Positions 186 to 33,110 of a DNA stretch of 33,110 nt are shown here, one piece after another. A model generated the notes under the pieces. That model was not told the origin of the DNA, did not search any database, and worked only from the letters and a program-made list of their open reading frames with translations. A program made the position numbers and the translations under genes. Positions within the stretch are counted from its first letter, which is position 1, and every line of letters starts with the position of its first letter. The DNA lies in NCBI GenBank assembly GCA_043809585.1, contig JBDROZ010000051.1:1-33110 (forward strand). Direction: 5' to 3'. This DNA comes from Candidatus Eiseniibacteriota bacterium. GTDB lineage: Bacteria > Orphanbacterota > Orphanbacteria > Orphanbacterales > Orphanbacteraceae.

Positions 186-3152
186 CTAAGCGAGCACCTC
201 CTCGATGATGGCGTCGAGGCTGCGGGCGACACGGGTGATGTGCTTCTCGAAATCCCGGGCGAGCAGTTCCCCCCCCGAAACGGAGTCGGTGGACCGGTAC
301 CCGAGGAGGGCGGCGGGGCGGTCGAAGTGCTCCGGGTTCACCGTGTTCACGGGCGCCACGGAGAGACGGTAGACATCGCGCAGGCGGTTCAGGAACTGGA
401 AGCTCTCCTTCATCTCCATGAACTCCCATCGCTGCCCCGGGATCTGTTCCGCCAGCATGTCCCAGAAGCGCCCGCCGATCGGCTCCCGGATCCGGTGGAT
501 CGCCTTCAGGAGGAGCATTCCCATCTCCAGGTCCCGGAGGCCGCCGGGGCACTCCTTGATGTCGAGGCAGCTGCCCGCGTTCTTCTCGTTCATGTATTCG
601 TGGCGCGACCGGATCTCGCCCGCCACCGCTTCGACGTAGCTGTCCTTCTGGGAGTAGATGCATCCCTCGATGATGCGACGGTGGAACTCCTCCTTCAGGC
701 GGCCGCTTCCGACGATCTGCCTCGCGCCGAGGAGTTGGGACATGTCGACGTAGGACTCCTTCCCCTCCGTCTTGAGCCATCGCTCGAGCTCCGAGAATCG
801 GGTGACGAATCCGCCGAAGCGGTCCGCCAGATGGTACTGGGGCATGATTCCCCGCCGGCTAATCTCCCGGTTCAGCCTTCCCAGGATCTTGTTCGAGTAC
901 TGGTAGATCTCCTCGTCGTCCGAGTTGAGAAGCACCACGAGATCGTAGTCGTCCTGGTGGGCCCGCTCCCGGGCGTGGCCGCCGGCGACGAAGAGCGCCA
1001 GCTTGTCGTGGGTCATGATACGCCGCTCCCCCTCCTCGTCCACCTCCGCCTTGCAGATGTCGAACAGGGTCTCGAGGAAGTGGTCGGCGAACTCCGTGAA
1101 CTCGGCGTCGAGCTGGGCGAGGGGCATGCCCTGAAGCGTCGCGAGCCCGATCCTGAGAAACTGGAGATCGTAGTACGCGCCGAGGAGCTTCTTCTGGTCC
1201 TCGTACGAGGGGGCTCGGATCAGATCGGCGAACATCCCCTGGGTGATCCGGTTCAGTTTCTTGAGGTCGCCGAAGGAGACCATGTATTCCGGGTGGTCTT
1301 CGCATACCCGCTCGATGGCGCGCCGGAAGAACCGGCTCGATTTACGGACGATGTCGCACAGGCGATAGAGCGCCTCGCGCCACTCGGCCACCTGGGAGTC
1401 CCACACCTTGCCCGTCAGCTTCTCGTGAAACGCCGCCTGTTTCTCGTCGTCCAGGAGGACCAGGTACCGGTAAACGAGATTCGGGTTGTACACGAAGACC
1501 GTGGAGAGGCGCCTGATCTCGTCGGGCGTGGATTGGATCGTCTCGAGAAACGCCTCGTTCAGTTCCTCGAAAACCTCGCGCGCCCCCGGCTTCCGCCGAT
1601 TCTTCCCGATGATCACGAGGAGGCGGAGCATCGTGTAGAACGTCTGGTATCCCCAGTGGGCGTAGTACTTGACGATCTGTTCCCGGTGGGCCTCGTCGAG
1701 AGCCATGAGGTCGAGGAGGAACCGGTCGAGGAGGTCGTTCTCCGGGTCCTCGAGAGCCATGAGAAGGTCGTTCCAGTACTTGATTCCCTGGAAGTAGCGG
1801 ACCCTTCGGAGGAAATCGATGGCGAGATTCGTCCGCCGCACGCCCGTGGGGGCGTGCCCCCCCGGCGTCACCCATTCGGCGAAGACCGTGATCTTCCGGA
1901 TGTGCTCCTCCACGTCGGGCAGGAGACTCTGCACCGCCTCCCGGCCGTACCGAACGTGCTGGAAGTAACGCACGAGCAGCTGCTCCCACGCCCGGATCAC
2001 GCCCACGTCCCGGTAACCCATGGCGTTCGCCACCTGCTGCAGGCACTCCTGCTCGGTCGGGTCCGAGAGGTCGATCTCCTCTTCCTGGGCGGAGAACTGC
2101 TGGTACAGGTGGCGGAAGGTCTCGACGAACGTGTGGCTCCTCTGCAGGGAGGAGAAGTCGACGCGGTGGTGCTTCAGCCGGCGGGAAAGCTGCTCGAAGG
2201 CCCCCCACGTGTCGGCCTCCTGAATCCTGTGAATGCACCGGTAGGCGCTCATGATCCCGATCACCATGCGGAGGAGGTCCTCTTTCGGGTTCACCCGTTC
2301 CGGGTCGTGGGGCCAAAGGAGGAGCGACTCGATCTCGCCGACGAGACCCCGCAGGTACCCCTCATGCTCCCGGATCGTCTTTCTGCGGCGGTAGTAGTAG
2401 CGGTTGTGGATCTTCCTCTTGAATTGCTCGAACAGCTCCACGCTGCCGGCGATCGGATAGACCGAGAGGATTTCGGTGACGCTGACGAAGTCGAGGATGC
2501 GCATGTCGAGGCGCCGCCGGTACTCGTCGATGGAGACCGTGTAACCCTCGGCGCCGACGTGCTCGGAAAGGTAGAAGTCCGGGTTGCTCGCCCACCGGAG
2601 CATCTCCCGGGCCATCTTGCCGATCGCCTTGTTCAGGCCGTGGCGGGCGGGGCTCCCGTCGTCGATGATGCCGAGGTCCACGTCGTCCTGGTGGAGCCTG
2701 GTGCCGACGGAACAGATGACGAACTCCGGCCGCGGCCCCTCGCCGAGGAGCAGATCGAGCACCCGGGTGAGGTAGGCGCCGACGAGCCGCACGAAGTCCT
2801 CGCCGACCCGGCGCACGAAATCCCGGTAGACGGCGGCGGGGTCGAGCGTGCCGCTCGCGTTCAACCGGAGATGGTCGATGGAGCGGATGTTCATCTGGAG
2901 GTACTGGATGGCGTAGTAACAGCCGAGAAGGGTGAGCATCTCCGCGGGGTCCCGCCCCGCGGACAGGACCGCATCCATCTCGGCGCCCGGGTCCTTCGCG
3001 GGCTGCCGGAGGTGCACTTGGTCGAACCGCCCCGATTCCTCGAGGCGGTCGATGAGAAGCCGTCCGTGTTTGTCGATGGCGTGGGAGTACTTCCGGCGGT
3101 AGTTGCCGAGCTCCTGGCAACGCTCCTCGAGCCGGCGGAAGTAACGCAACAT
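186..3152 (-). CDS. GlnE-like protein with two tandem Pol-beta-type nucleotidyltransferase domains
   Basis: 988-aa ORF with GGAG RBS. Two NTase motifs (SVGTRLHQDDVDLGII and AGGHARERAHQDDYDLVVL) and a GlnE/GlnD-type DIKECPGGLRDLE motif. No HD or ACT domain recognised. Confidence 0.75.
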   Translation of the reverse strand: MLRYFRRLEERCQELGNYRRKYSHAIDKHGRLLIDRLEESGRFDQVHLRQPAKDPGAEMDAVLSAGRDPAEMLTLLGCYYAIQYLQMNIRSIDHLRLNASGTLDPAAVYRDFVRRVGEDFVRLVGAYLTRVLDLLLGEGPRPEFVICSVGTRLHQDDVDLGIIDDGSPARHGLNKAIGKMAREMLRWASNPDFYLSEHVGAEGYTVSIDEYRRRLDMRILDFVSVTEILSVYPIAGSVELFEQFKRKIHNRYYYRRRKTIREHEGYLRGLVGEIESLLLWPHDPERVNPKEDLLRMVIGIMSAYRCIHRIQEADTWGAFEQLSRRLKHHRVDFSSLQRSHTFVETFRHLYQQFSAQEEEIDLSDPTEQECLQQVANAMGYRDVGVIRAWEQLLVRYFQHVRYGREAVQSLLPDVEEHIRKITVFAEWVTPGGHAPTGVRRTNLAIDFLRRVRYFQGIKYWNDLLMALEDPENDLLDRFLLDLMALDEAHREQIVKYYAHWGYQTFYTMLRLLVIIGKNRRKPGAREVFEELNEAFLETIQSTPDEIRRLSTVFVYNPNLVYRYLVLLDDEKQAAFHEKLTGKVWDSQVAEWREALYRLCDIVRKSSRFFRRAIERVCEDHPEYMVSFGDLKKLNRITQGMFADLIRAPSYEDQKKLLGAYYDLQFLRIGLATLQGMPLAQLDAEFTEFADHFLETLFDICKAEVDEEGERRIMTHDKLALFVAGGHARERAHQDDYDLVVLLNSDDEEIYQYSNKILGRLNREISRRGIMPQYHLADRFGGFVTRFSELERWLKTEGKESYVDMSQLLGARQIVGSGRLKEEFHRRIIEGCIYSQKDSYVEAVAGEIRSRHEYMNEKNAGSCLDIKECPGGLRDLEMGMLLLKAIHRIREPIGGRFWDMLAEQIPGQRWEFMEMKESFQFLNRLRDVYRLSVAPVNTVNPEHFDRPAALLGYRSTDSVSGGELLARDFEKHITRVARSLDAIIEEVLA

Positions 3153-13083: not shown

Positions 13084-13142
13084 CCCGCGGTTCCTCGCCG
13101 GTTGCTGCTCCGGGTCCGGATGCCGGGCTGCGAGCGCAGCGA

Positions 13143-13282
13143 GGGGGACACAATACTCAATTGCCGGCGAGGGGGACACAATACATAATTCGCAGCGAGG
13201 GGGACACAATACCTAATTCGTATTCGGTATTGCGCAGCGAGGGGGACACAATACCTAATTCGTATTCGGTATTGTGTCCCCC
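13143..13282. repeat. Cluster of four REP-like GGGGGACACAATAC units; the last is a full palindrome
   Basis: Units start at 13143, 13171, 13199 and 13241, each preceded by GCGA. 13241-13282 is GGGGGACACAATACC...GGTATTGTGTCCCCC. Confidence 0.85.
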
Positions 13283-13456
13283 GAATCACGCTGGCCCTTC
13301 CCGGCGGAGGGCCTGGTGGGCAACGCCCCCTTCTGGGACGACGTGGTCCTCCTCGACCTCCGCATGATTCCACGGTTCGGGATTGTTCGGTACAGATGTC
13401 CCCGGTCGCCTCCCTCGCGGATTCCCCCTTGCCGAAGAACGGGCTTTGGTCGATAA

Positions 13457-14584: not shown

Positions 14585-15187
14585 ATGAAGATGGTCATGA
14601 TTCGGTTCTTCGGCATCATCGGAGTCGTTTTGTTATCCACACCGGCCGGTAGCCATCCGAGCGGGAATCCCGTCCCCTCGACCCCCGACCTCGGTCCAAA
14701 CCTCGGACTGCGGTCGTGGGGCGCCCTCCGCCCGGGTCCGGTGGTCGACACCTTGATTGTCGTCGGGGTGGTCGACAATCTCGGCGGAGAGCGGGTGTCG
14801 TTGTGCGGGAAGTTCGAACTGAGCGGCGGGTACTCGCCGTCGGCCGAGAGTGAGAAGCGGTATCGTGCGCGGAAGGACTCGCTTGCCTCACAATGGGCCC
14901 TGCGGGATTCCCTGCGGCCGCCGGACGGACCCAGACTGCCGACCTTCTTTCTGATCGGCGGCGATGTTCACTTCGATTTCGAGTTCGAGTGTCGTCCCTA
15001 CGAGTTGAACTCGGGGGAGTCGGTCGCGGACACCACGCTGATCCCCGTTTACCGGGGCGACTTCGAGGAGTTTCCCGGATCCATCGACGTCACGGTGAGT
15101 TTCTGGAGCGGGTCCGAGGGCGCGACCTATCGGGAAGCGCGTTGCTTGGTGACGTCGCCCGCTCCGTTCCGTATCGCCGTTCCCTGA
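14585..15187 (+). CDS. Hypothetical exported protein
   Basis: 200-aa ORF with GGAG RBS and a hydrophobic N-terminal signal-like segment. No family recognised. Confidence 0.55.
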   Translation: MKMVMIRFFGIIGVVLLSTPAGSHPSGNPVPSTPDLGPNLGLRSWGALRPGPVVDTLIVVGVVDNLGGERVSLCGKFELSGGYSPSAESEKRYRARKDSLASQWALRDSLRPPDGPRLPTFFLIGGDVHFDFEFECRPYELNSGESVADTTLIPVYRGDFEEFPGSIDVTVSFWSGSEGATYREARCLVTSPAPFRIAVP

Positions 15188-15193
15188 AAGTAA

Positions 15194-15240
15194 GGGGGAC
15201 ACGATACCGAACTCTTTATTGCGGGGACACGATGCTGAAC
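15194..15240 (+). repeat. Two degenerate REP-like half units (GGGGACACGAT)
   Basis: GGGGGACACGATACCGAAC at 15194 and GGGGACACGATGCTGAAC at 15223 resemble the 13143-13282 units. Confidence 0.7.
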
Positions 15241-15296
15241 GCGTGCAGATCGGGGTAGTCGACTTGTCCTCAGTATTCTTCCCGCGCTCGCTCTAG

Positions 15297-15374
15297 CCTT
15301 GATCCGGCAAAAAATCGCGAGTGAAAACGCGCGAGCGTCAGCGATTTGCACCGGGATTTTTTGTCGGATTAAGG
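15297..15374. mobile_element. 78-bp MITE E2 with CTAG flanks
   Basis: TIRs CCTTGATCCGGCAAAAAATC / GATTTTTTGTCGGATTAAGG (18/20). CTAG at 15293-15296 and 15375-15378; the latter contains the transposase stop. Confidence 0.75.
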
Positions 15375-16034
15375 CTAGACCAGCGGCTTTGGCCCGGACC
15401 TTTGCGGCGAAAGCGAGCGATCCAGGGTCTCTTCGAGTTGTTGGAGGAAAAGGGTGTCCCCGAGCGGTCGGCCGGTCCGCGTGCGTGCTCGAATCTCATC
15501 GTCGGGAGGGTGCTCCGAGTAGCAAGACAAGAACCCCCGCCAATTGGGGACGATCTCGAGCAGGGGGGCGACTCTGACAAGCTCGTCGTCCTTCTTTCGG
15601 AGATGGGCGTGGGCGCTGCTCCAAGCATAGTCTCCGGGCTCGGGAACGATACCGGCCCGAACGGGATTCATCTCGACATAGCGGGCGCAGGCAAGCAGAT
15701 AGGCCTCGTCCATCGGGGTCGAGGCGAACCGCCCTTGCCAGAGGCATCCCACCCACTCATGTCTTTGATTGATTCTTAATGTGTATCTTCGATGTGCCTC
15801 TCCGACGGCTCGTGCCAGGGCTTCTTCATCGGGAGGGACGGCAAGAAGATGAGTGTGATTCGGCATGAGGCAATAGGCCCAGACCTGGACACCCCAGCGG
15901 TGGCACCATTCCGCCATCAGTCGGCGGTATAAGCGGTAATCCTCTTCCTGGAAGAATGTGGTCTGTCTTCGGTTTCCCCTTTGCACAACGTGATGGGGGA
16001 TGTGGGGGGCGACTATCCTCGCGATTCTCGGCAT
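15375..16034 (-). CDS. Y1 (HUH) transposase, IS200-like / REP-associated tyrosine transposase (RAYT)
   Basis: MPRIAR...HHVVQRGNRRQ, YCLMPNHTHLL (HUH), LWQGRF, RYVEMNPVRAG and WSS motifs. GAGGAG RBS. Flanked by REP-like repeats. Confidence 0.9.
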   Translation of the reverse strand: MPRIARIVAPHIPHHVVQRGNRRQTTFFQEEDYRLYRRLMAEWCHRWGVQVWAYCLMPNHTHLLAVPPDEEALARAVGEAHRRYTLRINQRHEWVGCLWQGRFASTPMDEAYLLACARYVEMNPVRAGIVPEPGDYAWSSAHAHLRKKDDELVRVAPLLEIVPNWRGFLSCYSEHPPDDEIRARTRTGRPLGDTLFLQQLEETLDRSLSPQRSGPKPLV

Positions 16035-16224: not shown

Positions 16225-16332
16225 GGGGGGACACAATACCGAATTGTGTATTGGGTATTGTGTCCCTCGAATCGAGCATTGGGTATTGTGTCCCCCGAAA
16301 AACGGTCCCCGAAAAACGGTCCCCGAAAAACG
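16225..16332. repeat. REP-like palindrome, extra right half-unit and 14-bp tandem repeat
   Basis: GGGACACAATACC...GGTATTGTGTCCC within 16225-16266, a second GGTATTGTGTCCCCC ending at 16296, then TCCCCGAAAAACGG about three times. Confidence 0.85.
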
Positions 16333-20301: not shown

Positions 20302-22661
20302 TCGGCCGATTGGCGTCCCTTCCGATCCGGGCGAAGCTCGCGATCAGTTCTCTCCTCGCCCTGCTGGCGATTTCGATGTTCGTTCTGATCTACTATCCCC
20401 ACGAGCAGAGGCGATCCGCGGTGGAAACCGCGGAGGAGCGCGATCACGGACTCGCCGTCATGATCGCATTGAGTGTCGGGGTCGCGCTGGAGCTGGAGGA
20501 CTATGAAGCCCTCACCGCCTCCCTCGAATGGACGCGGAACCGGTTCGGAGTCGACTACATCGCCGTGATCGACGAGGAAGGCGAGGTTCTGGCCCACTAT
20601 GATCCGGAGGGCCACGCATTCGAGCCGATCGGAGCCGCCTCGCGGCGGCACAGGCTCGACAGGGGCGCGTGCCCCTACCACATCTCGGAGACGCCGATTG
20701 TCTACGGGGGCCGATACCTCGGGACCATCGTCCTCGGGACCTGCCTGCACGACATCGAAGAGTCGGTCCGATCGGGAGTCCACGCGACCCTCAGCTTCGC
20801 CGCGATCGCCGTTCTGATCGGCATCCTTCTCTCCTTCTTGGCCGCGGGCCGGATCACCCGTCCCATCCTCGCCCTCCGCGCCGCCGCGATCCGCGTCTCC
20901 CGGGGGGACCTCGACGGCGAGGTCCCCCGGAACTCGCGGGACGAGATCGGCACCCTGGAGCAGGCGTTCGACATCATGATCCGGCGGATCCGGGAGTCGG
21001 TGGAGAAGCTGGAGGAGGCGAACCGGGAGGCGGACCGGATGGCCGAGAAGGCCCGGCGGGCGAGCCTCGCCAAGAGCGAGTTTCTCGCCAACATGAGCCA
21101 CGAGATCCGGACCCCCTTGAACGCGATCATCGGCATGACCGAGCTCGCCCTCGACACGGACCTGGACGCGGACCAGCGGGAATACCTGTCCACCGTTCTC
21201 GGCTCCTCGGAGTCGCTTCTCACGCTGATCAACGATATCCTCGATTTCTCCAAGATCGAAGCGGGCCAGATGGTTCTCGAAGAGACGCCCTACTCCCTGC
21301 GGAAGGTTGTGGAGTCGGCGGTGGAAACCCTCGCGATCCGCGCCCACGAGAAATCTCTCGAGCTGGTGGCCTTCATCGAACCGTCGGTGCCGGACCGGGT
21401 GGTGGGGGATCCGACGCGACTCCGCCAGGTTATCGTGAACCTCGTCGGGAACGCGGTGAAATTCACCCACGAGGGGGAGGTCGTGGTGCGATGCTCCTAC
21501 TTGCCGGAGAGGACGCCATCGACGCCCTTCCACTTCTCCGTGGCGGACACGGGCATCGGCATCCCCGAAGACCGGCAGGAGAAGATTTTCGAGAGCTTCA
21601 CCCAGGCGGACGGATCCACCACGCGCAAGTACGGGGGCACCGGCCTCGGCACGACGATCTCGAGGAAGCTCATCGGGCTGATGGGGGGATCGATCCGGGT
21701 GGAGAGCCCGAGCAGCCCGGATCCGAAAACCGGCGGCCCCGGGACCACGTTCCGCTTCGAGATCGGCATGGAGGTCGCCGACCCCGCGTCAGGTCCCTCG
21801 ACGGCCGTCCAAGGCCCGGTGCCGGACGCCCGGGTTCTCGTGGTCGACGACAACGGGACGAACCGCCTTCTCCTGGAGATCCTGCTCCGCCGGTGGGGAT
21901 TCGACTGCGCCTCGGCCGTCGACGGCCCCTCGGCGCGGGACGCCCTCGCCGAGGCCCATCGCAAGGGGTGTCCCTTCGATCTGATGCTTCTCGACGTGCA
22001 GATGCCGGGCGAAGACGGCCTCAAGACGGCGGAGATCGTGCGGGCCGATCCCGCGTTCCGGGGCCTGAAGGTGATCGTTCTCACGTCGGCCGGGATGCGC
22101 AGGGAGAAGGAACGGCAGAAGGCGCTGGGCCTCGAGGGGTATCTCACGAAGCCGATCAAGCAGGAGATTCTGAGGGACGCGATCCTCGCGGCTCTCGGCG
22201 GGGTAAGCGGGTTTCCTTCGAAGCGGGGCTCCGCGGTCCGGGCCGAGGGAAAGCCGGCGATCGAAAGCCTCCGCGTTCTCGTCGCGGAGGACAACCGGGT
22301 GAACCAGCGGGTCGCGGAGAAGCTCCTCCTAAAGTGGGGCCACACGGTGACCCTCGTCGACGACGGGGAGGACGCCGTGGCCGCTTTTTCGAAGGGGGGG
22401 TTCGACGTGATCCTGATGGACGTCCAGATGCCACGGATGGACGGACTGGAAGCGACTGCCGCGATCCGAGAAGTGGAGAAGGGATCGGGCCGGAGAATCC
22501 CGATCATCGCTCTCACCGCCCACGCCTTAAAAGGGGACCGGGACCGGGTGATCGCCGCCGGCATGGACGGGTACGTCACCAAGCCGATCCGCCGGGACGA
22601 ACTGCAGAGGGCCCTCGCCGAGGCGGCGTCCCGCGCCCTCCCCGCTTCTTCGCGCACCTAG
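20298..22661 (+). CDS. Hybrid sensor histidine kinase (2TM sensor-HAMP-HisKA-HATPase-REC-REC)
   Basis: [37 protein letters not shown] and two receiver domains. ATG overlaps the upstream stop (ATGA). Confidence 0.93.
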
Positions 22662-22836
22662 CCTGGATTATGCACAAATCTCCTACTGCGATCTCGGATC
22701 GCCGACTGCGAAGCCTCCTTTCCGTCGCCGCCTCCTCGATGTAGTGCATGACTACACTTCCGGTGGCGGCTCGTCCAAGTCAGCTTCTCGTCTGGCGATC
22801 CGAGCCCTCGTGACGGAGATTCATGCATAATCCAGG
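22662..22836 (+). mobile_element. MITE family A copy E3 (complete, 175 bp, CTAG flanks)
   Basis: 22-bp TIRs (20/22) CCTGGATTATGCACAAATCTCC. CTAG at 22658-22661 and 22837-22840. The whole element is an imperfect hairpin. Confidence 0.9.
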
Positions 22837-22866
22837 CTAGGGACGCAATCGTGCGGAACGACAATA

Positions 22867-22890
22867 GGCCCGGAGGCGTTCCCCCGGGCC
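22867..22890. terminator. Short hairpin between convergent genes
   Basis: GGCCCGG...CCGGGCC stem; U-tract is weak. Confidence 0.4.
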
Positions 22891-22915: not shown

Positions 22916-23209
22916 TTAGACGGAAATCACCGAGTCTTCGGAACCGAACTTGTTTGGCACGTACCCGTCGGCCGCCCAGTCGTTCTCCCACTTCTTGCCG
23001 TCCACCAGGTAGCGGAACCGGTACTCCGTCCCCGGCTTCAAGGAGACGGTCACCGAGAAGCTACCGTCTTTCCGTTTCTTCATCGGGGTCTTCATCGGAT
23101 CCCAGCCGTTGAAGTCGCCGCACACGGCGGCCTTCTTCGCGCGGATATCCGCCGGAAGGTCGAATGTGACCTTGCAGGTGCGCCCTTTCGGGGAGTACGT
23201 CTTTTCCAT
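22916..23209 (-). CDS. Isoamylase early-set / CBM48 glycogen-binding domain protein
   Basis: VTF...VCGDFNGW...YRFRYLVDG..WEND pattern. GGAG RBS; 97 aa. Confidence 0.88.
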   Translation of the reverse strand: MEKTYSPKGRTCKVTFDLPADIRAKKAAVCGDFNGWDPMKTPMKKRKDGSFSVTVSLKPGTEYRFRYLVDGKKWENDWAADGYVPNKFGSEDSVISV

Positions 23210-23579
23210 CACTCTTCTCCTCTGAACCTCGGCCGTCTCACGAACGGCCGCATGTTTCTCGACTCGCCGGCCGCTGGGAGGGGCGCCCCGGAGCGGTTCG
23301 CCCCTTCGCGACCGCTGGCAACAAAGCATGATAGTACAAATGGCACCGATCGTGGGGGAGTATCCGAGCAAGGAGACAAAAAGAGGACCCATCCCCTCCG
23401 CATTTGAAACCGATTGTCCCGGAAGGAGTTGCGCGAGCGGCCGGGCGGAAGGTCGATCGTCCGGGCCTTCGGGGCAGGGGGAAGCGGTCCTCCGAGAGGT
23501 TCGGCCGCTCCAGGGGGTTGGACTATGGTAAAATAGATTATCGTTTCCTGTTCAAATCCCGCTCCCCGGGAGAAACGAC

Positions 23580-25595: not shown

Positions 25596-25740
25596 GGAAT
25601 CTCGGAAGCACCGCCCCTACGCTTCCGCGCCGGGCTACGAAACCTGGCTCTCATTGAAACAGGCCGCCCGGATGAGGAAGAAGAGAGACGTCCGCCCACC
25701 TGGGTGATTCGGGCTCCTCACCAGTCCTACCGCGCCTGGT

Positions 25741-26157
25741 GCCTTGGAATGAGTGAGGGATTGGTTCCGCCCGAGCCCTTCGATACGGACCTTCGGTCCT
25801 ACTAAGAAGAGGCCTCCGGCCGGCCACGTTCATCGGCGGGGCGTGGGGGCCGGCTGAGGGAGGGATAGAGGGGCAGACTTGAACGCTCGTCGTGCTGCGG
25901 GAGTCAACCTTGATCTTTCATAAAATCTCGGCTCAAAGCGCTCTCGCTCGCGTGCCAGCACGCCATCCGGAACCGTACTCGCCCTCACCAAGGCTCACGT
26001 ATTGTGAAATACGCTCCCCATGGTTCGGGCTACGTGCGGCCCCGTTTGGCGCACTCTCACGCGTTGGATCTCGAGATTTTGTGAAAGATCAAGGTCAACC
26101 CTCCCATTCTCCGGGCTCGTAGAGGTGGCGCCCAGGAAGACGGCAACAACTCTCCCG
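25741..26157 (+). repeat. Repeat R copy A (about 225 bp plus an inserted MITE)
   Basis: Collinear with the reverse complement of 27472-27695 once the 25908-26094 insertion and one TCAA are removed. Confidence 0.85.
25908..26094. mobile_element. 187-bp MITE E4 inserted in repeat R copy A
   Basis: 23-bp TIRs (22/23) CCTTGATCTTTCA(T/C)AAAATCTCG. TCAA direct repeats at 25904-25907 and 26095-26098. Copy B shows the empty site. Confidence 0.9.
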
Positions 26158-26171
26158 AGGATGGAGGCGGG

Positions 26172-27341
26172 ATGTTGCGTGGTCGTTCGAGGACAATCGG
26201 CCCGGCGGGGGGGAGCCGGCTCGCGGCGGCGGTTTTTCTCCTCTGCCTCGCCGGCCCGGCGACCCCGTCCCCGGAGGCTCCCGACAGCGCCGCCGCGCCG
26301 AAATCCGTGCATGGATCCCGCCTCTTCCCCCCCCGTCTCGCCGCCCGGAGTGTCGTCTTCCTCCCCAAAGTCTACTACTCGACGGAGAACAGATTCGGCG
26401 TCGGCGGCCACGTGGTCGCTCCCTTCTGGTTTCAAGGCGACTGCGAAGCGGATGGGCGCCGGTCGGACGTGCGGGTCAAGGGACGGCTGACCACGGATCT
26501 TCACGGCAAGGCGGAAATCGAGTTCAATCTCCGATGCGCCGACCCCTGGTCGCTCGAGGGGAAGTTCGCCTACGACAACCTCGCCCTCCGGTTTTGGGGG
26601 ATCGGCTCCGACACGCCCTCGGAGAACGAGGAGGTCTACCGTCCTCAGAGCGTGCTCGTCTGCGTCGAGCTCTTCCGGCGGGTCGCGGACGGCTTCCGGA
26701 TGGGCGTCCGCTGGGAGCGGGAGCAGTACAAGTTCATCGAGGTCGAGCCGGGAGGGCTCCTCGATACGATGGAATACGTCGGCCTCCGGGGACGCCGGAT
26801 CAGCGGCGCCGGGCTCCTCCTCGACTGGGACACCCGGGATCACGTCTATTCCCCGAGCCGGGGCCGTTACTACCACGGCTACACGCTCTTCTTCGAAGAC
26901 TTCCTCGGGAGCGCCCACACGTTCAATAACCACTTCGTCGATCTCCGCCATTACCTCCCCCTCGGGGGCGAGAACGTCTTCGCGACCCAGCTCGTCGGCT
27001 ACTCCGTGCGCGGTGCGCCCCCCATCTACCGCTACGCCGCCCTCGGGGGCCGGGAGCACACCCGGGGCTACCGCACGGCCCGCTACCTCGATCGGGTTCT
27101 CCTCGCCTTCCAGGGAGAGTATCGCTTTCCCCTGGTCTGGCGGTTCGGGGGCGTCGCCTTCGGCGGCCTCGCCGGCGTCTCCCGGAACATCGAGTCCTTC
27201 CGGCTCGACCGGATGAGGCCGACCGTCGGCGCCGGCCTCCGGCTCCTCGTCGGCGACGACGATCGCATCCGCCTCCGTTTCGACGCCGCCTTCGGCGAGG
27301 AATCCGCTCGTTTCTACGCCAGCATCGGAGAGGCGTTCTAG
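26172..27341 (+). CDS. Omp85/BamA-TamA family outer-membrane protein, barrel only
   Basis: WDTRD...PSRG, LGG...RGY...RY.D, GAGLR, LRFD and C-terminal GEAF motifs; signal peptide; too short to carry POTRA domains. Confidence 0.88.
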   Translation: MLRGRSRTIGPAGGSRLAAAVFLLCLAGPATPSPEAPDSAAAPKSVHGSRLFPPRLAARSVVFLPKVYYSTENRFGVGGHVVAPFWFQGDCEADGRRSDVRVKGRLTTDLHGKAEIEFNLRCADPWSLEGKFAYDNLALRFWGIGSDTPSENEEVYRPQSVLVCVELFRRVADGFRMGVRWEREQYKFIEVEPGGLLDTMEYVGLRGRRISGAGLLLDWDTRDHVYSPSRGRYYHGYTLFFEDFLGSAHTFNNHFVDLRHYLPLGGENVFATQLVGYSVRGAPPIYRYAALGGREHTRGYRTARYLDRVLLAFQGEYRFPLVWRFGGVAFGGLAGVSRNIESFRLDRMRPTVGAGLRLLVGDDDRIRLRFDAAFGEESARFYASIGEAF

Positions 27342-27471: not shown

Positions 27472-27695
27472 CGGGGAGTTGTTGCCGTCCTCCGCAACGC
27501 CACCTCTACGAGGCCGGAGAAAGGGAGGGTTTGCTCCCGCAGCACGACGAGCGTCCTAGTCTAACCCGCCCCCCTCCCGGAGCCGGCCCCCCCGCCCCGC
27601 CGATGAGCGTGGCCGGCCGGAGGCCTCTCCTTGGTAGGACCGAAGGTCCGTATCGAAGGGCTCGGGCGGAACCAGTCCCCCGCTCATTCCAAAGC
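27472..27695 (-). repeat. Repeat R copy B (uninterrupted, inverted relative to copy A)
   Basis: Shares long exact blocks with copy A, e.g. TGGTTCCGCCCGAGCCCTTCGATACGGACCTTCGGTCCTAC and ACGCTCGTCGTGCTGCGGGAG. Confidence 0.85.
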
Positions 27696-27787
27696 CCGAG
27701 ATTCTCGTCCCTTCTCCCCGCTTTTTGTTATGATCGGCTCGATGACGTACTCGTGCCTGCCCGCCCCTTCGCCCGGAGGACCGGACC

Positions 27788-28732
27788 ATGAATCGACCCA
27801 CCCGAAGAGAGTTCCTGAGGACGGCCGCCGCCCTCGGCGGGGGAGTGGCCCTCGCCCCGTACGCTTCCTGGGCGGCGGAGGACGGAGCCGCGGCGAACCC
27901 CGGCATGAGCATCATTCGATGGGGGGGCGACCCCGTGGAAGACCCGGGCGTCGACGCCATGGCCGAACGCCTCACCCGCCGCGCCTTGGGCGATCTCGGC
28001 GGTATGGGGCGCTTCGTCGGCCGGGGCGACGTCGTCTGGATCAAGCCGAACATCGGATGGAACCGTGCCCCCGAGCTCGGGGCCACCACCAATCCGGGCG
28101 TCGTCGCCGCCCTTGTCAAGATGTGCCTCGATGCCGGCGCGAAGAAAGTCAAAGTCGGCGACCACACCTGCCACGACGCCCGCCAGTCGTACCGCTCCAG
28201 CGGCATCGAGGCGGCGGCCAAGGAGGCGGGCGCCGACGTCGTCCAGCTCGACGACAACCGCTACCGGGAGATGAAGATCGGCGGGGAGCGCCTCGACAAG
28301 TGGCCCCTCTATCCCGAGATCGTCGAGACCGACCTCGTCATCAGCGTCCCCATCGTCAAGCATCACGGACTCTCCAAGGCGACGCTCTGCATGAAGAACT
28401 ACATGGGGGTCATCGGCGGGAACCGCGGCTCCTGGCACCAAGACCTGCCGGCCTGTCTCGTCGACATCACCGCCTTCATGAAGCCCCGGCTCACCGTTCT
28501 CGACGCCGTGCGCGTGCTGACCGCCCACGGCCCGCAGGGGGGGAACCCGGCGGATGTGGAGAGGCGGAACACGGTCGCCGCGGGCACCGACATCGTCGCC
28601 CTCGACGCCTTCGGCGCCGAACTGCTCGGTTTCGGTCCCTCCGCGATCACGACGATTCGCGCCGCCGAGGAGGCGGGGCTCGGAACCGCCGACTACCGCT
28701 CTCTCGCCCCGAGTGAATCGGCCGAGTCGTGA
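27788..28732 (+). CDS. DUF362 domain protein with Tat signal
   Basis: TRREFL twin-arginine motif; VWIKPNIGW, TTNP, P.VKHH and TLCMKN.MG motifs. GGAGG RBS. Confidence 0.88.
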   Translation: MNRPTRREFLRTAAALGGGVALAPYASWAAEDGAAANPGMSIIRWGGDPVEDPGVDAMAERLTRRALGDLGGMGRFVGRGDVVWIKPNIGWNRAPELGATTNPGVVAALVKMCLDAGAKKVKVGDHTCHDARQSYRSSGIEAAAKEAGADVVQLDDNRYREMKIGGERLDKWPLYPEIVETDLVISVPIVKHHGLSKATLCMKNYMGVIGGNRGSWHQDLPACLVDITAFMKPRLTVLDAVRVLTAHGPQGGNPADVERRNTVAAGTDIVALDAFGAELLGFGPSAITTIRAAEEAGLGTADYRSLAPSESAES

Positions 28733-30426
28733 GCGCCTACCGGCGAGCGAAGACGATCATCGCCCTCCGGCGCGTCGTCCAGGGCCTCGTCCTCGTCCTT
28801 TTTCTCGCGCTCGTTCTCTGGACCCGGGGGCCCGAGGAAGGGGAGCCGAGCGGTCTCCTCTCGGTCTTCTTCGATCTCGATCCGCTCGTGCTGCTCGGCG
28901 CCTGGATCTCGGCCCGGGGCGTCGCCGGTCTTTCCCTGCTCGCCCTCGTCACCGTGGCGGTCACGTTCCTCCTCGGCCGCGTCTTCTGCGGTTGGTTCTG
29001 CCCCTTCGGCACCCTCCACAACATGGTCTCGTGGATGCGGGCCCGGAAGGACCGCCGCCGACTCGGGTCGGACGCCTTTTCCCGCTGGCAGCGGGGGAAG
29101 TACTACATCCTCTTCGGCCTGATCGCCCTCTCCCTCCTCGGCGGCCACTGGATCGGCGTCTTCGATCCCTTCGCGCTCTTCTACCGGAGCGTGGCGACCG
29201 GCCTCCTTCCGGCGGCGCAGTACGCGGTGGAGGGGAGCTCGACCGCGGTCTACGAGGCCGATCCCCACATCGGCGCCTTTCATTTCACCTCGATCACCGA
29301 GCCGGTCTACCGGTTTTTCCGGGACACGGTCTTCGTGGTGAAGCGGACGGTCTTCACCGGGAACACCCTTCTCTTCCTGATCTTCCTCGCCGCGGTGCTC
29401 TTGAACCTCCGGCGCACCCGCTTTTGGTGCCGCTACGTCTGTCCCCTCGGCGCCTTTCTCGGGCTCGTCGCCCGGCGCTCCCCTCTCCGGCTCCAAGCGG
29501 GAGAAGGGGAGTGCGGCGGTTGCGGCCTCTGCTCCCTCTCCTGCCCGGCGGCCGCCCAGCCGGACAAGCCGGGGGAGTGGCTCCCCACCGAGTGCTACGG
29601 CTGCTGGAACTGCGTCGCCGCCTGCCGTCAGGACGCGATCGATTTCGGTTTCGAGTCCCCCTTCAAGAGGCCCGAAGCGGGGACCATCGACCTCGGCCGG
29701 CGGGCGGCCCTCGCTTCCGTGGCGGTCGGGGCGGGGGCGCTTCTCACCTTCCGGCTCGCCCCCGAGGCGCAGGGCAAGACCTACAACCCCCTCCTCATCC
29801 GCCCCCCCGGATCCCGGCCGGAGCCGGAGTTCCTCGACCGGTGCGTCCGGTGCGGCATGTGTATGAAGGTGTGCCCGACGAACGCGCTCCACCCGACCGG
29901 CCTCCAGGCCGGGCTCGAGGGGATCTGGACCCCCGTGCTCGTTCCCCGGGTCGGCTACTGCGAGTTCGAGTGCAACCTGTGCGGCCTCGTCTGTCCGACC
30001 TCCGCCATCGAGCCGCTCCCGCTGGCCGAGAAGAAGAAGGTGAAGATGGGGCTCGCGACGTTCGACATCACTCGCTGCCTCCCCTACGCCCACGAGAAAG
30101 ATTGTATCGTTTGCGAGGAGCACTGCCCGATTCCCACGAAGGCGATCTACTTCATGGAGACCGAGGTGCGGCTCCGGGAAGGCGGGACGAGGGTGTTCAA
30201 GCAGCCCCGGGTGGATGCGGAGCTCTGCACGGGTTGCGGCATCTGCGAGAACGTCTGCCCCTTCGAAGACTGGCCGGCGGTGCGTATGACGAGCGCCGGC
30301 GAAACCAGGCACCCGGGCAACCAGCCGCTCCTCCCGACCGCCGGCGCCGGCGGCACCGTGCCCGATTGGGCCTTCGAGAAGCCCGCCGCGGTCGACAGCG
30401 CGACCGCGGATCCGTACGGCTATTGA
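28729..30426 (+). CDS. Membrane-bound polyferredoxin (NapH/MauN-like plus NapG/MauM-like fusion)
   Basis: GRVFCGWFCPFG, RFWCRYVCPLGA, multiple CxxCxxCxxxCP motifs and IRPPG. GTG overlaps the upstream stop. Confidence 0.9.
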   Translation: MSAYRRAKTIIALRRVVQGLVLVLFLALVLWTRGPEEGEPSGLLSVFFDLDPLVLLGAWISARGVAGLSLLALVTVAVTFLLGRVFCGWFCPFGTLHNMVSWMRARKDRRRLGSDAFSRWQRGKYYILFGLIALSLLGGHWIGVFDPFALFYRSVATGLLPAAQYAVEGSSTAVYEADPHIGAFHFTSITEPVYRFFRDTVFVVKRTVFTGNTLLFLIFLAAVLLNLRRTRFWCRYVCPLGAFLGLVARRSPLRLQAGEGECGGCGLCSLSCPAAAQPDKPGEWLPTECYGCWNCVAACRQDAIDFGFESPFKRPEAGTIDLGRRAALASVAVGAGALLTFRLAPEAQGKTYNPLLIRPPGSRPEPEFLDRCVRCGMCMKVCPTNALHPTGLQAGLEGIWTPVLVPRVGYCEFECNLCGLVCPTSAIEPLPLAEKKKVKMGLATFDITRCLPYAHEKDCIVCEEHCPIPTKAIYFMETEVRLREGGTRVFKQPRVDAELCTGCGICENVCPFEDWPAVRMTSAGETRHPGNQPLLPTAGAGGTVPDWAFEKPAAVDSATADPYGY

Positions 30427-30429
30427 TCG

Positions 30430-30753
30430 CCTGAATCGTGCCTGAACTTCCTGCTGCGGTAACGGCTCGCGGTCTGCAAGGCCTCCTTTCCTTCGCCGCT
30501 TCCTCAACGGGGCCCGTCGGGCGCTTAAACTTATCGCGACGGCTAGGAGCGATAAGCGTTAGCGCCCGGGGGGAGAATCTAATGGGGCCCCGCCTCCGGT
30601 TGCGGAAGTCCGACTGCGCCGGGGTACCCGCCGGAGCGAAGCGACGGCGGGTCGGCGCCGGGAGTACCCGGAGCGCGGCAGCGCGAAGGGTGCAAGTCGA
30701 CCTTTCGCCTCGCGATCCGTAACCTCGCTACAAAAGTTCATGCACCATCCAGG
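30430..30753 (+). mobile_element. MITE family A copy E5 (long divergent form, 324 bp)
   Basis: TIRs 17/20 (CCTGAATCGTGCCTGAACTT / AAGTTCATGCACCATCCAGG). Shares the internal CTTATCGCGACGGCTAGGAGCGATAAG block with E1. No clean 4-bp duplication. Confidence 0.8.
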
Positions 30754-30764
30754 CGAACGAGGAT

Positions 30765-30813: not shown

Positions 30814-32025
30814 ATGAACGAGAACCGCTACCGCTCCATGTCCGCTCGGTTCCATGTGAACCGCCGGTCGTTCCTGAAGGTCGGGGGCGCCGTCGGCGCC
30901 GGCCTCGCCCTCGGAACGCCCCCCGTCTTCGGCCAGGACGCCAAGGAGGAGGCACCGGCGAAGCCGTGGACGAACGTCGGCTCCGTTCTCGGCGCCCCGA
31001 AAACGGAGCACTCCCTGCCCGGTCCGTTTCCGGGGCGGGTGGTGGAGGTCCACGACCCGGCGTCGATGACCGACGACGGGGCCGTGGCGCCCGTGGTGGC
31101 CGCCATGTTCCGGCGGGGGGTGAAGACCCTCACCGGCGAGGGGATGGGGGGGAGCTTCGCCCGGTTCTTCACGAAAGAGGACGTGGTCGGCATCAAGGTG
31201 AATCCCGTGGGGGCCGGCCTCATCAGCACCCGCCTCGAGCTGGTCGACGCCATCGTGGCGTGGCTCGAGGAGGGGGGGATTCCGCGGCGGAACATCGTCA
31301 TATGGGACCGCTTCGAGGGGATGCTCCGGGAAGCGGGCTTCACGGAGGAGCGCTATCCGGGCGTTCGCATCGAAGGGCTCCAGATGATGGACGAGTCGGC
31401 GGCCTCCGGCGAGAGCGAGGACGACTCGGGATGGCGGGACGAGAACGGCGTCCACCGGAGCGCGGGCCGCTTCGACATGGAGGTCTTCTACCGGGCCGAC
31501 GTGGAGGCCCCCGAGGACGACGGCTACCTCAACCAGCACGTGGTGAACGGCAGGGACTCGTATTTCGGAAAGATCGTCACCAAGGACCTCACCAAGATCA
31601 TCAACGTGCCGGTCTTCAAGAACACGGGGAACGGCGTCTCCATGGCGACGAAGAACCTCGGCTACGGCGCCATCTGCAACACAGGCCGCCTCCACCGTCC
31701 CCTTTTCTTCGATGTTTGCACCGAGGTCCTCGCCTTCCCGGCGATCCGGGACAAACTGGTTCTGAACGTCACCGACGGCCTCCGAGCCCAGTACGACGGC
31801 GGGCCGATGCCGAACGCCCAGGCCACATGGCTCTACCATCGGATCTTCTTCGCCACCGACCCCTTCGCCCTCGACATGGTCTGCCACGATCTGATGGTGG
31901 CCAAGCGAAAGGAGATGGGGATCGAGGTGAACGAGCACCCCCGCTATTCCGAGTACCTTCGTTACGCCGAGAAGCTCGGGCTCGGCGTCGCCGATCCGGG
32001 CAAGACCGAATTCGTGAGGGTCTGA
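30814..32025 (+). CDS. DUF362 domain protein with Tat signal (second, divergent paralog)
   Basis: NRRSFLK twin-arginine motif; VGIKVNP, IINVPVFKN, SMATKNL and ATDPFALD motifs. Confidence 0.85.
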   Translation: MNENRYRSMSARFHVNRRSFLKVGGAVGAGLALGTPPVFGQDAKEEAPAKPWTNVGSVLGAPKTEHSLPGPFPGRVVEVHDPASMTDDGAVAPVVAAMFRRGVKTLTGEGMGGSFARFFTKEDVVGIKVNPVGAGLISTRLELVDAIVAWLEEGGIPRRNIVIWDRFEGMLREAGFTEERYPGVRIEGLQMMDESAASGESEDDSGWRDENGVHRSAGRFDMEVFYRADVEAPEDDGYLNQHVVNGRDSYFGKIVTKDLTKIINVPVFKNTGNGVSMATKNLGYGAICNTGRLHRPLFFDVCTEVLAFPAIRDKLVLNVTDGLRAQYDGGPMPNAQATWLYHRIFFATDPFALDMVCHDLMVAKRKEMGIEVNEHPRYSEYLRYAEKLGLGVADPGKTEFVRV

Positions 32026-32921
32026 TGTCGAGATTCACGGTCTCTGCCGCCGCCCTGCTCGGAGCGTTCATTTCCCTCCCCGCCCTCGCCGCCGATCCGC
32101 CGGCGCGGCCGATACCGAATCCGGAGTCCCCGAGGAGGGCGATTCCCAACCCGGCCGCCATCACGGAAAAGATGTTCGTCGGCCGGGAACTCGACGGCCA
32201 CATCGACGGCGGTGCCGAGCTCTTCTACGAGTTCGGTTTCCGGGACCTTCTCCTGCGGACCGTGCCGTACGGGGAGAACGAGATCTCCGTCGAGGTGTAC
32301 CGGATGAAATCGCCCGAAGGGGCTTACGGCGTCTACCTCATGAAGATGGGCGCCGAGACGCCCCACGCCGCCATTGACGGGAGGAACACCGTGGGCCGCT
32401 GGCAGGCGACCGCAGTCCAGGGGAACCTCTTCGTGCAGGTGAACAACTTCAGCGGGAACGAGGCGTACCGGACGAACATGGTGGGCGAGATCCGCAAAGC
32501 CTTCCTGGACGCCGGCGACCGGGGGCCGGCGCCGATCATGAACTACATGCCCCTCCAGGACCGGATGCCCGGTTCGGAGCGGTTCGTCTGCGGGCCTCTC
32601 TCGCTCCAGTCGATCGCCACCCTCGGCGACGGCGACATTCTCCTTCTCGGGGGCGACGTCTACGGCGCGGCCGCGCGCTACAAGAAGGGGGTCGGCCCGG
32701 CGCATACGCTCGTCCGCATCCCCTACCCCGGGCCGGGGCGGGCGACGGAGGCCTTCGCGAATCTCGCGGAGAACCTCGACCCTTATCTCACGGTCGTGGA
32801 TCAAGAGGAGAAGAAGCTCGTCTTCCGCGAGCACGACGGGCGGTACGGTGTCGCCCGCCGCTTCGGTCGCCGGATCGACGTGAAGCTCCATCTCGATTCG
32901 CCGGAGAACGCCTTCCGGTGA
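32025..32921 (+). CDS. Exported protein, DUF6599-like
   Basis: Signal peptide; LDGHIDGGAELFYEFGF...VEVYRM...GAYGVY pattern. ATG overlaps the upstream stop (TGATG). Confidence 0.7.
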   Translation: MSRFTVSAAALLGAFISLPALAADPPARPIPNPESPRRAIPNPAAITEKMFVGRELDGHIDGGAELFYEFGFRDLLLRTVPYGENEISVEVYRMKSPEGAYGVYLMKMGAETPHAAIDGRNTVGRWQATAVQGNLFVQVNNFSGNEAYRTNMVGEIRKAFLDAGDRGPAPIMNYMPLQDRMPGSERFVCGPLSLQSIATLGDGDILLLGGDVYGAAARYKKGVGPAHTLVRIPYPGPGRATEAFANLAENLDPYLTVVDQEEKKLVFREHDGRYGVARRFGRRIDVKLHLDSPENAFR

Positions 32922-32973
32922 TCGCCTCCGGTTTTGGGGCTTTCTCTCCCGGCCGGATCGGAGTAGGTTCTAG

Positions 32974-33110
32974 CCTGGATTATGCACAAATCTCCTACTG
33001 CGATCTCGGATCGCCGCCTGCGAAGCCTCCTTTCCGTCGCCGCCTCCTCGACGGGGCCCGTGGCGCACTTTCATCTTCTCGCGACCGCTCGGAGCGAGAA
33101 GTGTTAGTGC
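32974..33110 (+). mobile_element. MITE family A copy E6, truncated by the window end
   Basis: First 80 nt match E3 at 78/80. Preceded by CTAG at 32970-32973. Confidence 0.85.

Follow-up and report, generated by a model that had tools for sequence, protein, structure and literature searches.

A hairpin transposon family at CTAG sites in Candidatus Eiseniibacteriota: young copies in either orientation, old copies with one preferred end behind genes

MITEs (miniature inverted-repeat transposable elements) that form hairpins at TA sites near gene ends are a known kind of bacterial repeat, with ERIC, Correia and RUP as examples. According to PMC2229807, ERIC in Yersinia exerts an orientation-dependent effect on the upstream mRNA through ribosome-exposed RNase E cleavage, Correia RNA is handled by RNase III, and the presumed mover of RUP, with TA as its target, is IS630-Spn1, a point also made in the abstract of PMC2649163. 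A preference of IS630 for TA within CTAG is indicated by the title of Tenzen and Ohtsubo (1991), as cited in PMC2170065, and a passage of the latter paper states that ISY100 duplicates TA. Here we describe a family of this known kind, itself apparently undescribed, from a window of 33,110 nucleotides (nt) that makes up the whole of contig JBDROZ010000051.1 (C51) in the 4.24-Mb, 123-contig, 66% G+C assembly GCA_043809585.1 of a Candidatus Eiseniibacteriota bacterium (genome G000). The copy on which we focus, E3, is a complete hairpin element directly behind the stop codon of a histidine kinase gene.

The element is a non-coding, non-autonomous transposon family whose basic form is a 183-nt rod-like hairpin, and we regard its nature as a MITE with CTAG as the target as very probable. 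What is new here is an age-dependent orientation filter with preserved structure. Within one genome, the copies form an age series that leads from orientation-neutral young insertions to orientation-fixed, structure-preserving old ones, and this series offers direct comparative evidence for post-insertion selection on MITE copies, in an uncultivated phylum. The reading that we prefer, at a probability of roughly 0.55, is that of a CTAG/TA-targeting MITE whose sense copies are retained, probably as a co-transcribed hairpin in the 3' untranslated region (UTR).

Young and old copies of one structured family

E3 consists of CTAG, CCTGGATTATGCA, about 150 nt, TGCATAATCCAGG and CTAG, with one CTAG at each end:

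22658-22840, + strand: E3, a full-length (183-nt) member of the young subfamily with its L end in front, 204.6 bits against our covariance model R1
22662-22674, + strand: L terminal inverted repeat, CCTGGATTATGCA, with CTAG before it at 22658-22661
22824-22836, - strand: R terminal inverted repeat, which reads TGCATAATCCAGG on the + strand, with CTAG after it at 22837-22840

Assuming that TA is duplicated, E3 proper would extend from 22661 to 22837 (G...C), with TA flanks at 22659-22660 and 22838-22839. No open reading frame of at least 80 amino acids is confined to E3, and no promoter-like site was found around it. As the preliminary description of this DNA had proposed, E3 folds from end to end, at -100.7 kcal/mol (z = -12.0), a value that none of 200 shuffled sequences equalled.

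Copies of the element are spread throughout G000. The 13-mer CCTGGATTATGCA, with at most one mismatch, marks 110 ends; BLAST with both arms located 197 end loci, which gave 71 paired elements, 45 of them complete within one contig; and nhmmer returned 196 non-overlapping matches that amount to 23.5 kb, or 0.55% of the genome. The covariance model R1, built on 21 copies, matched at least 107 times when 150 of about 6,000 candidates were scored. The majority of copies measure 183 nt, and further size classes lie at 249, about 265-275, 301 and 330 nt. These long forms are the 183-nt element with hairpin modules A, A', B and C added in the apical loop or the 3' arm, and modules A and C are almost confined to copies of the family. 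There is no coding capacity in 183 nt or in the variants of 249-330 nt, and the lengths of diverged copies (180-185 nt) are not multiples of three. Young copies share about 94% mean pairwise identity, carry conserved terminal inverted repeats of 13-17 nt and occupy unrelated loci on many contigs. Contigs often break inside copies, so the family disrupts the assembly of these genomes, and R1 can now be used for its annotation. G000 also contains mini-derivatives, namely a 91-nt fusion of L and R arms at C61:18633-18723 and palindromes of about 22 nt at C23:88711-88732 and C111:93425-93446, which consist of hardly more than both terminal repeats, enclosed by CTAG-like flanks. Such forms may have been left by excision or have arisen through deletion.

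Outside G000, R1 found dozens of matches in genus g4 (G003) and in genus g5 (G004, G007 and G008), and two weaker ones in genus g6 (G005). In the collection searched, which holds only 10 genomes of the phylum, the family was present in five of eight other genomes of the same bacterial family and in none of 32 genomes outside it. Active lineages in three genera, g4 and g5 among them, have kept the terminus CCTGGATTATGCA unchanged. The genome-wide copies support the earlier view of a homologous, hairpin MITE-like family, and the searches fit its claim of a distinct one: no Rfam model matched at its gathering score or at the E-value threshold anywhere in the window, where the vicinity of E3 gave only a chance-level hit (E = 2.3), and the literature that we searched on MITEs with CTAG and stop codons, and on repeats of Eisenbacteria, contained nothing relevant and no description of the family. 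The words "CTAG" and "stop codon" are absent from the text of a 2024 review of MITEs. Exact-pattern scans of a species collection with a 24-nt end and a 24-nt core gave 0 matches, a result of little weight given how strict both patterns were.

The consensus structure is a single rod of helices P1 to P8 with conserved internal loops. In the 21 copies from G000, 92.5% of stem cells are paired and 44 of 60 pairs have changed on both sides; the covariation score of 0.461 compares with 0.183 for shuffled alignments, none of 500 reaching it, and with 0.056-0.105 for slid partners. An alignment of 33 copies from four relatives' genomes plus one from G005 gave 93.0% paired cells, two-sided change in 48 of 60 pairs and a score of 0.489 against 0.161 shuffled (0 of 500 reaching it) and 0.066-0.103 for slid partners, although this alignment was fitted to R1 and so leans to the structure of the model. 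Structure beyond the terminal repeats is nevertheless clearly preserved, and across the genome covariation is much stronger than the copies of the window alone could reveal. The covariance model and the wider copy set thereby uphold the proposal that compensatory change conserves the internal structure and not just the terminal repeats. The compensatory pairs quoted in its favour, CTTATCGC/GCGATAAG versus CTTCTCGC/GCGAGAAG and GCGCT/AGCGC versus GCACT/AGTGC, are indeed present in the sequence; they separate the inserted modules A and A' and therefore represent few independent events.

Among young copies, orientation relative to genes is neutral. At junctions of their L ends, the adjoining gene presents its 3' end 30 times and its 5' end 13 times; for R ends the numbers are 27 and 16 (Fisher p = 0.65 between L and R ends). 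The flanking CTAG contains a stop codon for 17 L ends and 12 R ends. By contrast, in 63 full-length model matches classed as old, the L side is turned to the 3' end of the upstream gene 57 times and to a 5' end three times; between tandem genes, 25 such copies are in sense and one is not. The nhmmer matches, partial ones included, tell the same story with 88 versus 9 and, between tandem genes, with 37 sense and 4 antisense copies (p about 1e-7). The "fixed orientation" of the preliminary description is thus not a property of the young subfamily, to which E1, E3 and E6 of the window belong, and is nearly true of the diverged copies.

Old copies also keep close to the stop codon, with 44 of the 63 starting between -7 and +6 nt from it. 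The stops involved are TAG (29), TGA (9) and TAA (5), TAG being in excess of the 40% found across the genome (p = 0.0003). The stop bases pair with the R end fully in 20 of 43 old copies and to at least two-thirds in 35 of 43, and TGA/TCA and TAA/TTA are among these pairings. Five old copies begin at a T-run, three of them directly behind a strong terminator-like hairpin. Both settings, stop codon and terminator, recur in G003.

The old copies of basic size (n = 57) have a mean pairwise identity of 0.61 and a median identity to the nearest neighbour of 0.72, so that none has a close relative. Nevertheless, all 57 are within 180-185 nt, 82% of their stem cells hold Watson-Crick pairs and a further 5% G.U pairs, and the asymmetric conserved core and the loop sequences persist. 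Their ends have drifted from CCTGGATTATGCA, often to GTAG...CTAC, and the end sequences grade from young to diverged copies through intermediates. Because these drifted ends depart from transposase-type ends, the old copies should be immobile, and their preserved fold, length and loops are then hard to explain by transposition alone. We considered and rejected the idea that the outer helix is a copy of the neighbouring gene's tail; it has a semi-conserved consensus of its own, CCCGCG-ATTCGG...GGTTTC.

CTAG as target and the contact with stop codons

The 110 ends in G000 are flanked by CTAG in 97 cases, by TAG in 103 and by TA in place in 106. Of 22 complete copies, 18 lie between CTAG and CTAG, two between GTAG and CTAG and one between TTAA and TTAA, the remaining one being irregular. 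The variants are asymmetric, with xTAG to the left of the element and CTAy to its right, and this asymmetry fits a TA duplication with G...C termini better than a 4-bp duplication.

CTAG is rare in this genome. We counted 1,011 sites (885 free and 126 at elements) against 13,177 expected, a 13-fold under-representation. The free sites comprise 278 stop codons, 436 intergenic positions and 171 positions inside coding sequence, which covers about 87% of the genome; stop codons thus account for 39% of the free sites outside coding sequence. By our own gene caller TAG serves as 40% of the stop codons of G000 (1,255 of 3,154), a high share for 66% G+C. About a fifth of the stop-codon CTAG sites are occupied. 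A gene's stop lies inside the flanking CTAG at 29 of 98 young junctions and for 11 of 18 complete young copies (binomial p = 0.09 against 0.39). Since an element with G...C ends rebuilds TAG, many copies can abut a stop codon and leave the gene unharmed. For young copies this contact needs no special explanation, because CTAG is targeted and 39% of harmless CTAG sites are stops. The fusion of elements to stop codons is real as an observation and largely a product of the choice of target; taken by itself it does not speak for a function. A rare palindrome concentrated at TAG stops explains how structured repeats come to be glued to stop codons.

Another palindromic element bounded by CTAG, of about 85 nt (CTAGCCTTGATCCGGCAAAAAATC...GGATTAAGGCTAG), lies at about 15294-15378 of the window, and the same motif occurs beside other loci. 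Its right CTAG provides the TAG stop of a gene resembling those for REP-associated tyrosine transposases (RAYT). This suggests that several MITE families of this genome share TAGCC-type ends and the CTAG target.

Retention of sense copies and its alternatives

On our preferred reading, the element would insert at TA within CTAG in either orientation, with duplication of TA, and would be moved in trans by a DDE transposase encoded outside these assemblies, with a target habit like that of IS630/Tc1-mariner elements. Insertions outside coding sequence would survive. A post-insertion filter would then allow long-term retention only of copies whose L end lies behind a gene's stop or terminator. 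Such copies would be co-transcribed with the upstream gene into a very stable 3'-UTR hairpin with the stop codon in its base, and a host factor might read this hairpin strand-specifically and so affect the stability or processing of the mRNA 3' end. We hold selective retention of sense copies to be probable; a specific role of the 3'-UTR RNA, suggested by analogy, is a tentative proposal.

Orthologous sites bear on retention. For copies taken from the relatives, we asked whether the stop of the homologous gene in G000 is likewise occupied. Among old-type copies of G003, G004 and G005, 4 of 8 shared the site with an old copy in G000, and among copies with recognisable CCTGG-type ends 0 of 11 did so, a difference with a hypergeometric probability of 70/3876 = 0.018 (L069 was excluded from the count as ambiguous). 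The shared sites are:

L028 (G003): shared with G000 contig C35, gene tails 51% identical in amino acids
L054 (G003): shared with G000 contig C82, gene tails 79% identical in amino acids
L056 (G003): shared with G000 contig C3, gene tails 74% identical in amino acids
L067 (G004): shared with G000 contig C70, gene tails 52% identical in amino acids

The sites of L029, L052, L060 and L066 were not shared with G000; L060 (G003) and L066 (G004) stand behind homologues of one gene. In a further orthologous comparison, of L077 (G008) with L063 (G004), the G008 copy has lost its core by internal deletion and retains about 85 nt of its arms, so copies can decay.

Several points weigh against the preferred reading. 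The split into young and old was made at an arbitrary similarity threshold, and the genes of G000 were called with our own crude codon-usage caller. The similarity of shared-site pairs does not exceed that of random pairs (their cores are 0.61-0.68 identical and rank 44-64 of 81), and since these copies are not each other's closest relatives, repeated independent insertions at the same hot spot could have produced them. Three comparisons of filled with empty sites gave no clean empty site, so that the TA duplication is deduced from the flanks: the C82/C23 pair has an empty site without TA, but its filled copy is truncated at one end; the C76/C99 pair proved to be derived by deletion; and in comparisons among G004, G007 and G008 either the spacers were too diverged or the element was present in both genomes.

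A mobilising enzyme did not come to light either. No autonomous element with the family's ends was found in the fragmented assemblies examined (G000, G003, G004, G005, G007 and G008), although such assemblies often lose insertion sequences and the absence of a partner is therefore not proven. The long repeats of G000 include none resembling a multicopy insertion sequence and none with family ends, and matches to the ends alone are truncated remnants. Neither the IS630-type (DDE_3) loci, three in G000 and others in G004 and G008, nor the IS1182-like fragments carry family ends. The IS630-family ends read TAG-TGAGCAACGCATAAATA in G000 and TAG-AGAGTCTCGCACAAATA in G008, both unrelated to those of the element. 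Two intact elements of other families were identified in G000. An IS1380-family element on C96 (L088:1257-2867) encodes 454 amino acids and has perfect 23-nt inverted repeats, CCCAGATCCACGG, with CTTAG on both sides. An IS1634-family element on C55 (L085:588-2597) encodes a 591-amino-acid transposase (307 bits, cut-off 100), is flanked by CTAG...CTAA and begins with CCCGACTTCGCGGATTCG (CCCG, like old copies). The likeness of the latter to old copies in junction pattern and first bases is suggestive only. The ends of both match our element in no more than the first bases. On contig C116 of G008 (L070), an IS630-family element adjoins a 22-nt remnant of a MITE L end and has CTAG in common with it; this may be an insertion sequence that entered the MITE's flanking target site.

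Strand comparisons add to the contrary evidence. In 71 of 71 copies the strand complementary to the gene's sense strand gives the more stable fold, the mean advantage being about 13 kcal/mol (for E3, -113.3 against -100.7 kcal/mol). In helices P1, P2, P4 and P5 of old copies, A.C mismatches outnumber G.U pairs by 128 to 36, unlike what selection on a sense RNA would produce. P3 behaves in the opposite way, with conserved sense-strand G.U pairs at 107 to 4, and in the relatives its variation is likewise confined to one side, with the G.U pairs retained. These G.U and A.C counts are dominated by a few fixed columns, which look like inherited features of a master element rather than independent events. 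The counts conflict between helices and seem compatible with selection on RNA of either sense or antisense polarity, or on one strand of the DNA. The preliminary claim of a mobile structured element, acting as RNA or as single-stranded DNA, thus holds as regards a MITE-like nature and a preserved structure; on which form is selected, the helices disagree.

Alternatively, the family might be a purely selfish MITE, in which many long-lived sources keep the fold in order to transpose, CTAG stops are hit repeatedly, and harmful antisense copies are purged without any benefit from the sense orientation; an antisense copy could, for example, place the ribosome-binding-like motif GGAAAGGAGG or an unfavourable structure in the mRNA. 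Such an account draws on the ordinary MITE behaviour of young copies, the continuum of end sequences, the low similarity of shared-site copies, the lost core of the G008 copy and the occupancy of stop-codon CTAG sites, which is high enough to make repeated insertions at one gene plausible. We nonetheless consider it unlikely. Old copies without the ends that the active lineage conserves in three genera should be immobile, yet 57 of 57 keep their length, pairing and loops at 61% mean identity; as none of them has a close relative, the selfish account would have to assume 50 or more separate source lineages. Moreover, purging alone leaves the conservation of the core sequence in the surviving copies unexplained.

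A strand-specific DNA hairpin, of which a recombinase or transposase reads one folded strand by its shape as in REP/REPIN with RAYT, the ends of IS200/IS605 or integron attC sites, would preserve structure while sequence drifts, and polarity would then follow the strand that becomes single-stranded in replication or recombination. The better fold of the complement, mismatches conserved at fixed places, the strong strand preference of R1 (130-190 bits for the true strand, 55-72 bits for the reverse one), the frequent GTAG...CTAC ends of old copies and a REP-type tyrosine transposase gene in the same window all speak for this idea. Yet that gene, at 15375-16034 on the minus strand (56 bits for Pfam Y1_Tnp; 67.7 bits for NCBIfam REP_Tyr_transpos, short of the cut-off of 80 bits), is flanked by another repeat, GGGGGACACAATAC, and not by the hairpin element. 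The young copies, bounded by terminal inverted repeats of the classical sort, occupy a palindromic TA target in both orientations, which fits double-strand DDE rather than single-strand transposition; a bias of 95% relative to the upstream gene exceeds, in our judgement, any effect of replication direction; and the copies are single and dispersed behind large ordinary genes, not in cassette arrays. On this last ground attC sites were rejected, and we rate the DNA-hairpin reading as a whole as improbable. Still less credible are independent genes for small or cis-antisense RNAs, with their own promoter directed towards the upstream gene and a mobile subfamily derived by acquisition of transposon ends. 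The antisense strand does fold better, and copies have preserved both a length of about 183 nt and the shape of a rod. However, the surroundings of E3 showed no promoter-like site, Rfam gave no match, read-through better fits copies that begin exactly at the upstream gene's stops or terminator T-runs, and the ends grade continuously from young to old.

Retention of sense copies as co-transcribed hairpins has a more far-reaching version that is possible, though on the doubtful side. In this wholesale domestication, a fossil MITE would serve as a 3'-UTR RNA module at 60 or more loci per genome, some of which different genera have in common; the stop codon would form part of its base, and a host protein or RNase would recognise its conserved asymmetric loops. 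Insertions at CTAG stops would in that case have been a recurrent source of ready-made elements of post-transcriptional control. Should the cell make use of the old copies, one 3'-end module would be common to more than 60 genes in each genome, a mass exaptation of selfish DNA.

The window and comparison with known systems

Besides E3, three copies lie in the window, and these are given here with the genes next to E3:

1-188, - strand: E1, L part of a 330-nt-type young copy, cut by the contig start
20298-22661, + strand: gene upstream of E3, hybrid sensor histidine kinase with receiver domain, whose TAG stop (22659-22661) lies inside the left CTAG of E3
22916-23392, - strand: convergent gene downstream of E3, with a CBM48-like domain
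about 30426-30757, + strand: E5, diverged 330-nt-type copy with modules A and B, a weak match to R1 (34.7 bits)
32970-33110, + strand: E6, a young copy of the 301-nt type with the module variant A', of which the contig end leaves the L part

E3 is placed between the 3' ends of two genes, and the terminator-like hairpin at 22867-22890 on the minus strand belongs with the convergent one. In E1, CTA at 186-188 is the TAG stop of a minus-strand gene at 186-3152 with a GlnD-like domain. E5 starts right behind the TGA (30424-30426) of the Fe-S protein gene at 28729-30426, and its outermost pair has changed from TAG/CTA to TCG/CGA. E6 begins 49 nt past the TGA (32919-32921) of the gene at 32025-32921 (DUF6599). 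The four homologous copies are therefore located as first described, the gene calls bear out the stop-codon contacts of E1, E3 and E5, and the L end comes first relative to transcription in all four. No functional theme was found among the upstream genes in the window (histidine kinase, GlnD-like, Fe-S protein, DUF6599).

The window harbours further repeats. Inverted GGGGGACAC(A/G)ATAC repeats at 13130-13290, 15181-15222 and 16226-16301, around the RAYT-like gene, form a second, unrelated repeat system. The gene at 26172-27341 stands between the arms of a 129-nt inverted repeat (25736-25864 and 27572-27700, 91% complementary). More inverted repeats are nested there, and the whole may represent another mobile or cassette-like unit.

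Several known systems resemble the element in part. Like REP sequences near stops in E. coli, it is a stable hairpin within a few nucleotides of a stop codon. Liang, Rudd and Deutscher (2015) reportedly found that REP in this position lowers expression through ribosome stalling. Unlike REP, which measures 35-40 nt and is moved by RAYT, the element has 183 nt and DDE-type ends, and it differs from REP/REPIN systems in that the RAYT-like gene of the window has GGGGGACACAATAC as its flanking repeat. With IS630/Tc1-mariner elements it has in common the TA target and the preference for CTAG. Its ends are unrelated to those of the IS630-family copies in G000 and G008, so that the common target habit does not suffice to place it among IS630-derived MITEs.

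Correia (CREE/NEMIS) of Neisseria and RUP of Streptococcus pneumoniae are likewise short MITEs with terminal inverted repeats, TA at the ends and hairpin transcripts. RUP has a matching insertion sequence, whereas no partner was found for our element. Both are AT-rich, unlike the family described here, which has 62-72% G+C and an asymmetric core conserved across genera. The resemblance that we propose to ERIC and Correia is functional only. ERIC, or IRU, of Enterobacteria and Yersinia is known from experiments on mRNA, and the evidence for function in our case is evolutionary only. Both are non-coding imperfect palindromes (127 nt in ERIC, 183 nt here) that form a long hairpin and are dispersed in transcribed intergenic regions. 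Unlike ERIC, to which it has no known sequence relation, the element belongs to another phylum and combines clear active ends and a CTAG target with a stop codon in the base of its helix.

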